4,302 bases of DNA, taken from a virus (lineage: Duplodnaviria > Heunggongvirae > Uroviricota > Caudoviricetes). The position numbers and the translations under genes are program-made. Of this stretch, positions 1 to 4,261 are shown piece after piece. Below the pieces are notes generated by a model. It worked only from the letters and a program-made list of their open reading frames with translations, did no database searches and had not been told where the DNA came from. Every line of letters begins with the position of its first letter. The stretch's first letter is position 1. Location: IMG/VR virus record IMGVR_UViG_2534681978_000024. One strand, written 5' to 3'.

Positions 1-38
1 GTATTTCGAGAAGGGGCTTGCAAGCTGAGTTAACAGAA

Positions 39-1097
39 ATGAAAACGGGGCTGGTGCTGTCCGGCGGCGGGGCGGTGGGCGCTTATCAGGCGGGAGTGGT
101 TAAGGCACTGGCAGAGTGTGGGGCACAGATCAGTATGGTTTCAGGGGCCAGTATCGGGGCTCTCAATGGTGCCATTATCGCGGCTTCTCCCGATTTGTCA
201 GAAGCTGCCGCACGCCTGGAGGCGCTCTGGGAGCATCTGGGGAATAATCAGGTGCTGTCGGTAAACCGATCGGTTTACTTTTCATTGCTGAAAAAATTGT
301 TCCAGGCAATGAACCTCTGCCAGATCCCCGGACGTGCAGGAGTACTGCTTACGACGCTTTTTCGCCATATATCGACAATCAACGGGTTCGAAAATCTGAT
401 GACTCAGCCGTTGTTGTCAGATGAGCCCCTGACAGCGCTGATGGATCATTATCTTGATACTGATGCTCTGGCAGACGGGCTACCGCTGTATGTGTCGCTG
501 TACCCCACAGAAGGAGGCATGCAGGATATTATTGACTGCATTCGTGCTGAACTGGGTGCCGGAACCACGAAAAACGCCGTTTTTCAGCATATCCAGAGCC
601 TGCCCCGCGGACAGCAGAAAGAGGCTCTGCTTGCGTCAGCCGCACTGCCCCTGCTGTTCCGTCCCCGTGAAGTTCAGGGAAAAATGTACGGTGATGGTGG
701 TATGGGAGGATGGCGAAATATGCAGGGAAATACCCCTGTAACGCCTCTGGTCGATGCCGGATGCAATATGGTGATTGTGACACATCTGAGTGACGGTTCT
801 TTATGGGATCGCCAGGCTTTTCCGGACACCACAATCCTTGAGATCCGTCCCCGGAAAAGACTGAAACATGCAGGTGATGGTGGCAACAGCGGCGGTCTGC
901 TCAGTTTTACATCGGCACATACCGACGCCTGGCGTCAGCAGGGCTATGAAGACACGATGCTGACGATGGAGCATATCCGGAAACCGCTGGCAGCACGTCA
1001 GGCACTGACCCGGTCAGAAACGGTGTTGCAGAAAAGTCTGGAGAAAACGGAAGAGGCAGATTCGGCACTGAGAAACGCGATGGCCCGACTTAAATAA
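39..1097 (+). CDS. Patatin-like phospholipase (serine lipid hydrolase, patatin/PNPLA family); start taken as ATG at 39, the ORF track starts at TTG 18 and the frame is open to the window edge
   Basis: Seen in translation: glycine-rich oxyanion loop GLVLSGGGAVGAYQAG close to the N-terminus, nucleophile elbow G-A-S-I-G (GxSxG, Ser codon agt at 150-152), and catalytic Asp in YGDGG (gat at 693-695). This trio is the established signature of the patatin Ser-Asp dyad fold. Single long ORF of 359 codons, with a roughly 100-residue C-terminal region lacking recognisable motifs. No strong Shine-Dalgarno before either candidate start. Confidence 0.85.
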   Translation: MKTGLVLSGGGAVGAYQAGVVKALAECGAQISMVSGASIGALNGAIIAASPDLSEAAARLEALWEHLGNNQVLSVNRSVYFSLLKKLFQAMNLCQIPGRAGVLLTTLFRHISTINGFENLMTQPLLSDEPLTALMDHYLDTDALADGLPLYVSLYPTEGGMQDIIDCIRAELGAGTTKNAVFQHIQSLPRGQQKEALLASAALPLLFRPREVQGKMYGDGGMGGWRNMQGNTPVTPLVDAGCNMVIVTHLSDGSLWDRQAFPDTTILEIRPRKRLKHAGDGGNSGGLLSFTSAHTDAWRQQGYEDTMLTMEHIRKPLAARQALTRSETVLQKSLEKTEEADSALRNAMARLK

Positions 1098-1113
1098 AGA
1101 CGCTCCGGAGAAA

Positions 1114-1139
1114 CGCCACCGCCTGTGGTGGTGTTTTTC
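1114..1139 (+). terminator. Weak candidate intrinsic terminator downstream of the phospholipase gene
   Basis: Short imperfect GC stem (gccacc ... ggtggt, about 5-6 bp) followed by a T5 run at 1135-1139, 17 nt after the stop codon at 1095-1097. The stem is short, so this is tentative. Confidence 0.35.
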
Positions 1140-1148
1140 TGGCTGGTG

Positions 1149-1160
1149 TTATTGAAAATA
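1149..1160. repeat. Left copy of an 11/12-identical direct repeat (ttattgaaaata) at the left edge of the AT-rich cassette
   Basis: ttattgaaaata at 1149-1160 versus ttactgaaaata at 3116-3127. Each copy sits immediately after a terminator T-run and at the point where base composition switches between GC-rich and AT-rich. Confidence 0.4.
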
Positions 1161-1225
1161 TTTTCAGATATATATTACCTGGACGATGGTTAAGATTAAT
1201 TTATTTAATTTTGGAGAGAAAACTC

Positions 1226-1684
1226 ATGAAACTGTTAAACATTCTTTTATCTGTTGTTTTAACTGTAAGTGCAACCGTCGCACAAGCAGAATCGGCATTG
1301 TGGAAGCGTAACAGTGTTGCCGGAACTGATATGTTCAGTATTGGTAATGTTTCTATTAACTGCACGACTAATCCAGAAGACAACAATTTGCTACCGCACT
1401 ATGTGTGGATTTACGGTCATACCCCCACCCCGCTAAATCAGTACGATTCTGATATCATTTTTATCATCAACGGTAAAGAGTATCCGGTCCCACCTGTCGA
1501 CGGAACACGAATGAATGAGAACAAATGGGTACACTTTATCGATGCTATCGGTGAAGCCACGAAGTTCGACGTTTTAGTAAACGGTAAGAAAGTCGACAGC
1601 TATACCACAAATATCAAAAATGTGAAAAAGACTTTGGGTAACAAATTCTACGGCAGTTGCTGGAGCACCTGGTTCCAGGAATAA
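1226..1684 (+). CDS. Hypothetical small secreted/periplasmic protein (about 152 aa precursor with N-terminal Sec-type signal peptide)
   Basis: ATG at 1226 preceded by Shine-Dalgarno GGAGAG (1213-1218, 7-nt spacer); the ORF track begins upstream at TTG 1211, but ATG 1226 with this RBS is the likelier start. N-terminus MKLLNILLSVVLTVSATVAQA-E has a positively charged n-region, hydrophobic core and AxA cleavage motif. Mature part about 131 aa with two Cys. AT-rich codon usage. No family recognised. Confidence 0.75.
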   Translation: MKLLNILLSVVLTVSATVAQAESALWKRNSVAGTDMFSIGNVSINCTTNPEDNNLLPHYVWIYGHTPTPLNQYDSDIIFIINGKEYPVPPVDGTRMNENKWVHFIDAIGEATKFDVLVNGKKVDSYTTNIKNVKKTLGNKFYGSCWSTWFQE

Positions 1685-1809
1685 TTGATAACGTGGTGTA
1701 AAACACCTCAGTTTAATTTAATACAGTGAGTGAAAATGAATATCATAAAAATATTTTCTGCTTCAGATGTCACATATTTTATTAACTGAATGATTAACAG
1801 GAGAATCAG

Positions 1810-2349
1810 ATGAACTGGCATTATGAAAAAAATGGTGTACGTTATGATAACGTAACAGAGGAAGATATTATTGAACGTATCCGCCGTGGTGAACTGAATG
1901 CATCAACACTGGTGTGGCAACAGGGCATGCTGGAATGGCAGCCAGTTTCAGCCACATCACTGGCGGAAATACTGAAACAAAGTGAAGTTCCTCCGGCCCT
2001 TCCGGGTCACCGCATTCCCGGAGGCGTTGTCTGGACGCTGGCATTTGCCCCTTTGATTGGATACATACTTGAGATGTGGACTGCCGGGCTGAACGGTATG
2101 TCATTTGAACGGGCTTATGATGCAGTCAGCGAAGGCCAGTACTGGTTTATCTCTCTGATTCTGAATATTGCTCTGGGATATCTGGATGAACGAAAACTCC
2201 GTAAATCTGGCGTGGATACCACAGCATTTGGCTGGCTGGCATGGTTGATCCCGGTTTATCTGTGGCGTCGGGCAAAAATCCTCGGGCAAAAACCTGCTTA
2301 TTTCTGGGTCTGGTTGGTTATGCTGATACTGGTGTTATTTACGGTCTGA
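1810..2349 (+). CDS. Membrane protein: N-terminal GYF-like (DUF4339-type) soluble domain fused to about four predicted transmembrane helices
   Basis: ATG at 1810 with Shine-Dalgarno AGGAG (1799-1803, 6-nt spacer). N-terminal roughly 50 aa (NWHYEKNGVRYDNVTEEDIIERIRRGELNASTLVWQQGMLEWQPVS) match my recollection of the bacterial GYF-like/DUF4339 consensus (W-x-Y ... NG ... TLVW-x-x-GM-x-x-W-x-P). C-terminal half has four hydrophobic stretches (VVWTLAFAPLIGYILEMW, YWFISLILNIALGYL, AFGWLAWLIPVYLW, AYFWVWLVMLILVLFTV) separated by charged loops. Confidence 0.8.
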   Translation: MNWHYEKNGVRYDNVTEEDIIERIRRGELNASTLVWQQGMLEWQPVSATSLAEILKQSEVPPALPGHRIPGGVVWTLAFAPLIGYILEMWTAGLNGMSFERAYDAVSEGQYWFISLILNIALGYLDERKLRKSGVDTTAFGWLAWLIPVYLWRRAKILGQKPAYFWVWLVMLILVLFTV

Positions 2350-2455
2350 TATTCTTTATCGCAGAGTTTACTAAATAATCAGGTTATTAGTGTTCTTAAC
2401 AGGTAAATGATGTTCATCATGGAACGGATATATTTTATTTGATTCAGGAGACAGT

Positions 2456-2604
2456 CAGAAACATAGTATAAATATATCGCCATGTTGAAGGTCATATCTT
2501 CAGGTATTTGTTTAATAAACAAGTCGGGGGTTAATCCTGACCTCTCGAGTGGATTATAAGTATTGCAGAAACAGTTTTTATACTTTTATTTAATATCAGA
2601 AACA
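2456..2604 (+). repeat. Three direct copies of the octamer CAGAAACA in the intergenic region upstream of the 2619 gene (candidate regulator-binding repeats)
   Basis: CAGAAACA at 2456-2463, 2566-2573 and 2597-2604, the last copy abutting the Shine-Dalgarno of the downstream gene. Seen directly in sequence; significance not computed. Confidence 0.3.
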
Positions 2605-2618
2605 ATGGAGTAATTATC

Positions 2619-3032
2619 ATGAAAAATATCATCACTATTTTAATGATTGCAGTTATCAGTTTCTTTACTGCTAATGTATCAGCAAACAATGCCGTTCCTT
2701 TACCAACCAACCTGACTGATGTTACTGACGGTACAGAATTCTGGTGTCAGGGTACTGATACTATCGACGGAGGTTGTGAATACCTGGGCACATCCAAAGA
2801 CATGCAATACGGTCTGGTACACGCCATGGGGGGTACAGCGTGCTGGGATGGTTTATACGGCGTAATTAATTTCTATACCGGTAAAGCCCAGACCATCAAA
2901 TACAACAACAATCAAAGTTGTGAAGGCAACATCACCGCCAGTTTCGTTACCCTGAAAAACGGTAAACCGGGCGTTAAACTTTACGACAATACGATTCATA
3001 AGGTTGTCGGGCTTGACGAAATCAAATTTTAA
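2619..3032 (+). CDS. Hypothetical small secreted protein with four cysteines (137 aa precursor, Sec-type signal peptide)
   Basis: ATG at 2619 with Shine-Dalgarno GGAG (2607-2610, 8-nt spacer). N-terminus MKNIITILMIAVISFFTANVSA-NN has a typical signal peptide with VSA cleavage motif. Mature part about 115 aa with four Cys (two possible disulfides). Followed by a strong intrinsic terminator. No family recognised. Confidence 0.8.
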   Translation: MKNIITILMIAVISFFTANVSANNAVPLPTNLTDVTDGTEFWCQGTDTIDGGCEYLGTSKDMQYGLVHAMGGTACWDGLYGVINFYTGKAQTIKYNNNQSCEGNITASFVTLKNGKPGVKLYDNTIHKVVGLDEIKF

Positions 3033-3082
3033 TGTATGAATTATAGTATCTTATCTGCGCGTTATTAATATCAAATGTAAAT

Positions 3083-3117
3083 AAAGCCCCGGCCATTATG
3101 GCAGGGGCTTTATTTTT
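3083..3117 (+). terminator. Rho-independent terminator for the 2619-3032 gene and the AT-rich cassette
   Basis: Hairpin aaagccccggcc / attat loop / ggcaggggcttt: an 11-bp stem with one G-A mismatch (3083-3094 pairing with 3100-3111), followed by a-ttttt (3112-3117), about 50 nt after the stop codon. Confidence 0.75.
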
Positions 3118-3127
3118 ACTGAAAATA
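3116..3127. repeat. Right copy of the 11/12-identical direct repeat (ttactgaaaata) at the right edge of the AT-rich cassette
   Basis: See left copy at 1149-1160. Located at the transition from AT-rich back to GC-richer sequence, overlapping the end of the terminator T-run. Confidence 0.4.
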
Positions 3128-3375
3128 CATGACGGGCTGTACATTACTTTTATTTTCCGAAGACCCTTTCTCACGCAAACAGACAGTTGCTGTCATAACA
3201 GCTTACCGCAATGTGTTTATCCAGGAATGCATTTCCGGCGGATTATCCGCAACGCGGAAGGTCAGCGACGCTGGCGCTGCCGGAATTCTGAACCCGATGT
3301 AGGCAAATAACTTAATGCGTGGCTCACCAGTGAAGGGCTTCCCGGACAATAAACCTCATTCATTTCACCCATCAG

Positions 3376-3406
3376 GCCGCGTCTTCTCCGGGAGACGCGG
3401 CTTTTT
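3376..3406 (+). terminator. Orphan strong terminator-like hairpin with no obvious upstream CDS (possible sRNA 3-prime end, or terminator of a decayed gene)
   Basis: Perfect 9-bp GC-rich stem gccgcgtct (3376-3384) pairing with agacgcggc (3393-3401), 8-nt loop, immediately followed by T5 (3402-3406). + strand orientation (T-run follows the stem; no A-run precedes it). Confidence 0.55.
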
Positions 3407-3442: not shown

Positions 3443-4261
3443 ATGCGATTAGCAAGTCGTTTTGGTTATGCGAACCAGATACGCCGTGACCGTCCGCTGA
3501 CACATGAAGAGCTGATGCACTATGTACCCGGTATTTTTGGGGAAGACCGGCATACCTCCCGCAGTGAACGCTATACGTATATCCCCACCATCACCGTGCT
3601 GGAAAGTCTGCAGCGGGAGGGCTTTCAGCCCTTCTTCGCCTGTCAGACCCGCGTACGTGACCCGGGCCGCCGGGAATACACCAAACACATGCTGCGTCTG
3701 CGGCGGGCCGGAGAGATAAACGGAGAACATGTCCCTGAAATCATTCTGCTCAACTCCCATGACGGTACCTCCAGCTACCAGATGCTGCCGGGTTACTTCA
3801 GATTCGTCTGCCAGAACGGCTGCGTCTGCGGTCAGTCTCTGGGAGAAGTGCGTGTTCCGCACCGGGGAAACGTGGTGGACAGGGTCATCGAAGGGGCTTA
3901 CGAAGTGGTGGGCGTTTTTGACCGGATTGAGGAAAAGCGTGATGCCATGCAGTCGCTGGTCCTGCCGCCACCGGCACGCCAGGCGCTGGCACAGGCGGCA
4001 CTGACTTACCGTTATGGTGACGAACATCAGCCCGTCACCACCACTGACATTCTGACGCCACGACGCCGGGAGGATTACGGTAAGGACCTGTGGAGTGCTT
4101 ATCAGACCATCCAGGAAAATATGCTGAAAGGCGGGATTTCCGGTCGCAGCGCTAAAGGAAAACGTATCCACACCCGTGCCATTCACAGCATCGACACGGA
4201 CATTAAGCTCAATCGCGCATTGTGGGTGATGGCAGAAACGCTGCTGGAGGGTATGCGCTGA
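3443..4261 (+). CDS. DUF932-family protein (YfjQ/YafZ-like, conserved in CP4-type prophage and integrative-element cargo regions)
   Basis: ATG at 3443 with strong Shine-Dalgarno AAGGAG (3431-3436, 6-nt spacer). 272-aa ORF beginning MRLASRFGYANQIRRDRPLTHEEL, which I recognise from memory as resembling the E. coli YfjQ/YafZ DUF932 family (not database-verified). Stop TGA at 4259-4261 overlaps a downstream ATG (4261-4263). Confidence 0.8.
   Translation: MRLASRFGYANQIRRDRPLTHEELMHYVPGIFGEDRHTSRSERYTYIPTITVLESLQREGFQPFFACQTRVRDPGRREYTKHMLRLRRAGEINGEHVPEIILLNSHDGTSSYQMLPGYFRFVCQNGCVCGQSLGEVRVPHRGNVVDRVIEGAYEVVGVFDRIEEKRDAMQSLVLPPPARQALAQAALTYRYGDEHQPVTTTDILTPRRREDYGKDLWSAYQTIQENMLKGGISGRSAKGKRIHTRAIHSIDTDIKLNRALWVMAETLLEGMR

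Follow-up and report, generated by a model that had tools for sequence, protein, structure and literature searches.

A four-cysteine exported protein shared by jumbo phages and CP4-type islands of Escherichia coli, a candidate periplasmic binder of cell-wall hydrolases

Overview

The 4,302-nucleotide stretch of DNA analyzed here (IMG/VR virus record IMGVR_UViG_2534681978_000024; hereafter the window) carries at positions 2619 to 3032 a gene for a small exported protein with four cysteines, hereafter the target. By sequence comparison, the target is a clear member of the gp182/phrog_8968 family and not of the Ivy, Spackle or AB5 B-subunit families, and its flanking DNA indicates capture from an SPN3US-like jumbo phage into a variable cargo slot of CP4-type integrative islands. 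As to its role, we propose, with a probability of roughly 0.35, that it is a non-enzymatic periplasmic binder or inhibitor of cell-wall hydrolases with a part in superinfection exclusion or in defence. Taken by itself, the gene is an unremarkable "hypothetical protein"; the novelty lies in the definition of its superfamily, its jumbo-phage origin, the adjacency and fusion of family members to Ivy, and their prevalence in E. coli.

A conserved gene for a predicted periplasmic protein

Translation of the window confirmed the plus-strand open reading frame (ORF) at 2619-3032, which encodes 137 amino acids (aa). Its N-terminus, MKNIITILMIAVISFFTANVSA|NN, displays a lysine-containing n-region, a hydrophobic core of ~15 residues (11-residue Kyte-Doolittle means of up to 2.97) and a V-S-A cleavage motif. 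An equivalent signal peptide is present at the N-terminus of every aligned homologue, and on the strength of these features the protein is predicted to be Sec-exported to the E. coli periplasm. No lipobox with an acylated Cys at +1 was found in the target, the signal peptide ending in VSA|NN and being free of cysteine. The coding region is thus divided as follows.

2619..2684, plus strand: Sec signal peptide of 22 codons, MKNIITILMIAVISFFTANVSA, with the predicted cut after VSA22 (hydrophobicity profile and homologue N-termini)
2685..3032, plus strand: mature 115-aa domain, predicted to be periplasmic, plus stop codon (AlphaFold model, Cys conservation)

The mature part has a mass of 12.5 kDa and an isoelectric point of 4.9. 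A preliminary description of this DNA, made from the sequence alone, had pointed to a small exported four-Cys protein of about 115 aa, rich in Gly, Thr and Asn. All of this was borne out: the predicted cut leaves 115 aa, with 15 Gly, 13 Thr, 10 Asn and 4 Cys, and the cysteine motifs WCQGT, GGCEY, TACWD and QSCEG are all present. The cysteines are also conserved in the family, C75 and C101 being invariant and C43 and C53 at least 90% conserved among 42 members. Comparison with the 88%-identical Salmonella orthologue gave a ratio of nonsynonymous to synonymous substitution rates (dN/dS) of 0.098, from which we conclude that the target is a genuine coding gene under purifying selection.

A small family centered on jumbo phages

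In PHROGs, the target matched phrog_8968 over its full length (E 1.8e-37, profile positions 1-135 of 135). Searches by tblastn matched 53 phages at 33-42% identity, with at least 80% of the query covered in 47 of them. All 53 are jumbo myoviruses of ~240 kb belonging to the SPN3US, Asesino/phiEaH2 and Machina groups, with Salmonella, Erwinia, Escherichia and Proteus as hosts. SPN3US gp182 (SPN3US_0182 / YP_009153476) and its orthologues in the Erwinia phages Asesino (gp203) and phiEaH2 share with the target its length, signal peptide and four cysteines, at 39-42% identity. The gene context is different: in SPN3US the homologue SPN3US_0182 is one of four signal-peptide proteins, gp180 to gp183, encoded as a tandem array within a lytic 240-kb genome, whereas the window copy is single, lies in a chromosomal island and has a remnant of the following phage gene beside it.

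Searched exhaustively with a profile, 1.84 billion cluster representatives yielded just 37 family clusters, so the family appears small and limited to Enterobacterales and their jumbo phages. A word-indexed protein search found few relatives, its third round with a broad profile being less sensitive than the second. Family members are all annotated "hypothetical protein," and searches of our copies of Pfam, NCBIfam and PADLOC and of the PDB sequences with the target and the 42-member profile gave no family match.

Profile comparisons extended the family beyond gp182. A hidden Markov model (HMM) built from the gp182 type only detected the gp181 type (E 1e-10 to 1e-13) and the gp183 type (E 1e-5 to 4e-8; all values scaled to a 1e6 database), with the four cysteines aligned in both cases; the gp181, gp182 and gp183 types are therefore paralogues. 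The gp183 type in turn aligned with the two-Cys gp180 type in hhalign with a probability of 88%. Against the E. coli K-12 protein YfjS, hhalign gave 57% with alignment A1, 89% with the whole-family alignment A8 (YfjS pair) and 92.6% with the gp183 type (YfjS pair), all from small alignments; the matches at 89-93% span 86-96 columns and include the second Cys pair. The gp180 type compared directly with YfjS was not significant at the profile-profile level and is linked to it via the gp183 type only. A Pfam scan with PF20494, the YfjS/YafY family, gave no match to the target at E <=1, and only one of the 42 family members matched weakly (E 0.12).

YfjS and YafY are inner-membrane lipoproteins of E. 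coli K-12 cryptic prophages that occupy the same CP4-type island slot, next to YfjT-like genes. The target differs from them in having an AXA-type signal peptide instead of a lipobox and an extra N-terminal disulfide, and in lying outside PF20494. They are probably distant relatives of the family. We accordingly delineate, from profile similarity, a small putative superfamily that comprises the gp180, gp181, gp182 and gp183 types, the C-terminal domain of certain "Ivy family" proteins and, probably, YfjS/YafY.

A 222-kb record deposited as "Enterobacter ludwigii plasmid unnamed1" (NZ_CP134650.1; locus L004) is collinear with SPN3US, the SMC-like proteins of the two being 58% identical over 836 aa; further SPN3US homologues are gp180, gp183-185 and an acetyltransferase. 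Because of this collinearity and homology, we regard the supposed plasmid as the genome of a jumbo phage. The array in it also includes a YfjT-like gene, homologous to that of a 152-aa neighbor of the target in the window.

Capture from a jumbo-phage array

The DNA immediately downstream of the target was examined in a four-way alignment that set the window beside the E. coli pNJS001-2 island, a Salmonella island and the E. ludwigii jumbo phage. After the stop codon, a decaying phage spacer and the first 5-6 codons of the next, gp183-type, gene are kept alike in the window, in the Salmonella island and in the E. coli cassette, the similarity then ending in all three at one common breakpoint. 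The ribosome-binding site of that next gene is also kept in the island copies. Window positions 3051-3097 are 87% identical to positions 6428-6474 of locus L006. In the window, the remnant is as follows.

3033..3061, plus strand: decayed phage spacer and first 5-6 codons of the next phage gene (gp183 type), ending at the shared breakpoint and followed by TTATTAAT (four-way alignment)

Since the islands retain the stub of the next gene and share a single breakpoint, the sequences indicate that the target was captured from a jumbo-phage array, of SPN3US-like type, into the variable cargo slot of CP4-type islands.

Association with Ivy-like proteins

Family members are linked to Ivy (inhibitor of vertebrate lysozyme), a periplasmic lysozyme inhibitor family (PF08816 / NCBIfam PRK09993), by three independent lines: the position of a phage ORF, an E. 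coli cassette that shares DNA identity with that phage, and a domain fusion. First, NZ_CP134650 contains an unannotated 160-aa ORF (L004:5502-5984) at the gp181 position, directly upstream of the gp182-type gene, whose sole family match is Ivy (NCBIfam E 6e-4, Pfam E 0.03). Second, the DNA of this Ivy-like/gp182-type pair is 85% identical to that of a cassette from an E. coli island, from the ribosome-binding site of the first gene to the first codons of the next phage gene. This sister cassette is found in 2376 of 5426 complete E. coli genomes (44%), O157:H7 included; sister paralogue and window family copy together account for ~45%. Third, in Salmonella enterica diarizonae a gp182-type gene is followed by that of a 322-aa exported protein with an Ivy-like N-terminal half and a four-Cys C-terminal half. 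This is a single genome locus, from a narrow-alignment search. Its Klebsiella plasmid orthologues are 65% identical and bear the Prokaryotic Genome Annotation Pipeline name "Ivy family c-type lysozyme inhibitor"; their Ivy domain scores 23.9 bits in Pfam against a gathering score of 21. The gp183-type HMM aligns the C-terminal domain of the fusion with all four cysteines at 22 bits, the target itself scoring 26.7 bits.

The E. coli cassette carries, upstream of the sister gp182-type gene, a "hypothetical protein" of ~227 aa (L006:5302-5985, L020:1726-2403, L021:8806-9489) whose start seems to have been mis-called. The Ivy-like protein has its own signal peptide from an internal Met (MKRLHTLML...), as in L004:5502-5984.

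Ivy resembles the target in being small, periplasmic and disulfide containing, and Ivy-like domains stand next to family domains, can take their place or are fused to them. The target has, however, no sequence or fold similarity to Ivy, and neither a PF08816 HMM match nor a CKPHDC-type loop was present in it.

The target might instead be an orphan immunity protein directed against an interbacterial toxin acting in the periplasm, such as a muramidase or amidase effector of the type VI secretion system or a colicin-type protein; the Ivy link would suit immunity to muramidase effectors no less than phage exclusion. Small size, periplasmic location, disulfide bonding, tandem diversification and carriage by mobile elements are all traits typical of immunity genes. 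On the other hand, no toxin, Rhs, VgrG or colicin gene was present near any copy examined, and the three or four paralogues carried by strictly lytic jumbo phages are hard to square with interbacterial competition, making this explanation quite improbable.

Predicted structure

AlphaFold run with 21 sequences gave a predicted local distance difference test score (pLDDT) of 75.5, which rose to 86.6 with 42 sequences; in the latter case all five models scored 83-87 and pLDDT exceeded 90 over residues 31-137. The modeled domain is all-beta, with seven main strands arranged in two four-stranded antiparallel beta-meander sheets, and resembles two neighboring propeller blades. The best structural matches, with 80-97 residues aligned over two consecutive four-stranded meander sheets, were two-blade propeller fragments and propeller blades, such as 6r5x, Pizza3 3ww8 and TolB 1c5k, and the putative lipoprotein 4l1n_A. 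No close PDB relative of the modeled fold was found, and a structure search of BFVD returned only the target's own family.

We infer that the cysteines pair as C43-C53 and C75-C101, because the first and second cysteines are jointly absent in YfjS and the gp180-type relatives. With this pairing, the first disulfide shuts a variable hairpin loop, and the second, C75-C101, holds the two sheets together. The family alignments contain no conserved His, Asp, Ser or Glu constellation, the invariant columns being Cys, one Gly and aromatics only. As no catalytic-type constellation is conserved, a binding protein is favored over an enzyme.

The preliminary description had also suggested a lectin-like or toxin-subunit-like fold, and it is here that its interpretation as a whole proved only partly sound. 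What survives of that idea comes closest to a lectin-like, carbohydrate-binding protein, in which the two-blade unit would oligomerize to a pseudo-propeller. It would bind the glycan of peptidoglycan, the lipopolysaccharide core or some other sugar of the envelope and might, for instance, hide a phage receptor; we consider this reading unlikely. The toxin-subunit part of the idea fell away: both an oligonucleotide/oligosaccharide-binding (OB) fold and a B-pentamer fold are ruled out, the modeled fold being neither. For a B subunit of an AB-type toxin, or another secreted virulence factor, there speak just the size, signal peptide and Cys content on which the preliminary description had drawn. 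Besides the fold, there is no match to a toxin family in Pfam, NCBIfam or PDB; homologues occur in lytic phages of plant and enteric bacteria; and the enzymatic A-subunit-like genes that the preliminary description had proposed to look for next to homologues were absent from every context examined. Fold, neighboring genes, lytic-phage homologues and toxin-family negatives together effectively refute this explanation.

A proposed inhibitor of cell-wall hydrolases

A mechanistic precedent for our proposal is T4 Spackle (gp61.3), a small periplasmic protein with a disulfide that inhibits the gp5 tail lysozyme and brings about superinfection exclusion (PMC7677548). Like the target, Spackle is small and periplasmic and has a signal peptide and a disulfide, and it is phage encoded. 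Spackle is, however, a 75-aa alpha-helical bundle (PMC7677548), whereas the target is all-beta; the two are not homologous, and we draw the analogy as a hypothesis. The known lysozyme inhibitors of bacteria are for the most part beta-sheet proteins, in which a loop between strands is inserted into the enzyme (PMC7677548).

In the mechanism we envisage, the target would be a 12.5-kDa, Sec-exported periplasmic protein with DsbA-type disulfide bonds and no enzyme-like features. It would bind and block in the periplasm a peptidoglycan-degrading enzyme, or another envelope component, needed by an incoming phage, and would thus act like Ivy or together with it, and as a functional counterpart of T4 Spackle. 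The phage copies would in this way enable the infected cell, and the island copies their bacterial host, to exclude superinfecting phages or to resist lysis from without. Different target specificities would come from the tandem paralogues and from the variability of the Cys-bridged loop, and the variable C43-C53 hairpin would, speculatively, be a candidate inhibitory loop for insertion into the enzyme. More broadly, and tentatively, the gp180-183/YfjS superfamily might be a structurally distinct and hitherto unrecognized class of periplasmic proteins that inhibit the peptidoglycan hydrolases of phage or host. Jumbo phages of the nucleus-forming type and CP4-type islands would exchange its members, and with a divergent Ivy it would form a superinfection-exclusion/defence cassette in nearly half of E. 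coli, including O157:H7.

Several observations weigh against this proposal. Homology to Spackle is absent, a PDB sequence search with the target gave no match, and structure comparison found its fold to be unlike those of Ivy, MliC/PliC, PliG, PliI and Spackle. The window contains neither an Ivy-like gene nor a remnant of one, the partners there being a YfjT-like and a GYF_2 protein. The linked Ivy-like domains lack the His of the canonical CKPHDC loop, which binds the catalytic site (having CKANTC, CKSDAC or CEQGNC instead), so they may not inhibit lysozyme; the majority of them score below the Pfam cut-off. Guilt by association and domain fusion, moreover, imply a shared process and not an identical activity. 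In the literature on SPN3US gp180-183, the WP accessions and YfjS/YfjT, we found no functional study of any family member, and the sole experimental datum concerns the putative relative YafY, which activates Cpx on overproduction (PMC6538781).

The family is nonetheless conserved under purifying selection and tandemly multiplied across a whole jumbo-phage clade, and the adjacency and fusion to Ivy, together with the exchange of DNA between phages and islands, lead to a testable hypothesis of cell-wall protection or periplasmic phage exclusion. If correct, a new fold would join the short list of proteinaceous muramidase inhibitors, as a new structural variant of the known periplasmic inhibitors that act in superinfection exclusion; a function would be suggested for the long-unexplained yfjS/yafY-type genes of the K-12 cryptic prophages; and lytic jumbo phages would be a source of envelope-defence genes for bacteria. 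If wrong, the family would still mark an uncharacterized periplasmic activity common to phages and islands.

Island context and neighboring genes

The window belongs to an E. coli integrative island of the CP4 type that is associated with tRNA-Ser and lies downstream of the ter tellurite-resistance genes. The upstream cargo of the island encodes a GTPase, a dynamin-family protein, an RdcB-family protein and a patatin-like phospholipase; the genes downstream are those of DUF905, DUF932, antirestriction, RadC, DUF987 and CbeA/CbtA. The flanks (patatin, DUF932) are present in 4484 of 5426 complete E. coli genomes. A low-GC block at ~1100-3130, by contrast, occurs in just 77-78 of the 5426, always as one piece; the target gene shares it with genes for an exported YfjT-like protein and a GYF_2 membrane protein. 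Other strains have nothing in this slot or carry different small exported proteins there. The two neighbors of the target within the block are the following.

1226..1684, plus strand: gene for a second small exported protein of 152 aa with a signal peptide and 2 Cys, annotated hypothetical (BLASTP homology)
1810..2349, plus strand: gene for a protein with a GYF_2 (DUF4339) N-terminal domain and a hydrophobic C-terminal half (Pfam GYF_2, E 5e-12)

The 152-aa protein is 31% identical to K-12 YfjT (E 3e-20) and 30% identical to the jumbo-phage-array ORF L004:4607-5068 (E 6e-23), both by BLASTP against a small database. No matches were obtained on tblastn of the phage collection with YfjS and the YfjT-like protein. 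The C-terminal half of the GYF_2 protein is probably membrane-spanning; its gene has a dN/dS of 0.075 and recurs beside family members in E. coli, Salmonella and Serratia islands; the protein may be a partner or receptor. In the Salmonella island, the gene row is YfjS-like, gp181-type, GYF_2, gp182-type; in Serratia, a gp183-like gene adjoins a GYF_2 gene; and in Yersinia rohdei, a gp181-type gene takes the place of YfjS beside YfjT, downstream of a WYL regulator. The Y. rohdei YfjT neighbor is annotated as Pfam PF27224 (YfjT); the copy of Pfam that we searched never returned PF27224, even with K-12 YfjT.

These arrangements bear on another explanation, namely that the target belongs to an envelope signaling or adaptor module. 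It would then be a periplasmic ligand or sensor subunit acting with the GYF_2 protein, the YfjT-like protein or both to alter envelope physiology (Cpx-type stress, lysis timing or membrane remodeling), without inhibiting a hydrolase. Such a role is consistent with the recurrence of the block of GYF_2 gene and family member in three genera, with the replacement of YfjS by family members beside YfjT in Yersinia, with the HMM-HMM links to YfjS at 89-93% probability, and with the activation of Cpx by the probable relative YafY when overproduced (PMC6538781). However, Cpx activation by an overproduced lipoprotein is an unspecific phenotype, and the jumbo-phage arrays examined contain no GYF_2 gene; we regard this explanation as unlikely.

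The GTPase/dynamin/RdcB/patatin cargo (L001:13243-18698 and window positions 18-1097) looks like a single module and may be a defence-type system. The patatin protein gave weak matches only, to models of phospholipase effectors of the cyclic-oligonucleotide-based antiphage signaling system (CBASS) type and of anti-phage systems. Another exported Cys-containing family of 188-204 aa (L005:5280-5894 and L014:5621-6187; 59% identity between Enterobacter and Salmonella) has no family assignment and is encoded in some islands directly after a YfjR-like WYL/DeoR regulator.

Leader, octamers and terminator

The noncoding features surrounding the target gene are as follows.

2350..2618, plus strand: AT-rich leader/intergenic region of the target gene, ~31-38% GC (sequence, composition)
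2456-2463, 2566-2573 and 2597-2604, plus strand: three copies of the octamer CAGAAACA, all in the leader (octamer statistics)
2607-2610, plus strand: ribosome-binding site GGAG, 8 nucleotides 5' of the ATG (sequence)
3079..3119, plus strand: intrinsic terminator with a 17-bp interrupted stem and a T-run, ending the transcription unit (RNA fold)

The preliminary description had attributed to the gene its own upstream regulatory region with repeated octamers and a strong terminator. The octamers are real, the three copies of CAGAAACA comparing with 0.15 expected in the whole window and being reached in 0 of 200 shuffles. An operator role is, however, unsupported by conservation, since in the orthologous Salmonella leader, of which ~80% of nucleotides are conserved, only the copy proximal to the ribosome-binding site is intact. 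A scan of the plus strand of the leader for a consensus sigma-70 promoter gave no match, nor did an Rfam scan of the window above threshold. The terminator stood up well: the hairpin at 3079-3115 has a folding free energy of -24.8 kcal/mol (z = -5.4), with equally stable structures in 0 of 200 shuffles. It was overlooked by a simple scanner because of its extended stem and loop.

Downstream of the terminator, the DUF905 gene (window 3129-3310) is, in this lineage, a frameshifted pseudogene according to the RefSeq annotation of the identical region; the DUF905 gene of the Salmonella island is intact (79 aa). Between the DUF905 remnant and DUF932, a GC-rich hairpin of 13 bp with a T-run after it (window positions 3374-3403, ~40 nucleotides 5' of the DUF932 start at 3443) resembles a terminator or attenuator.
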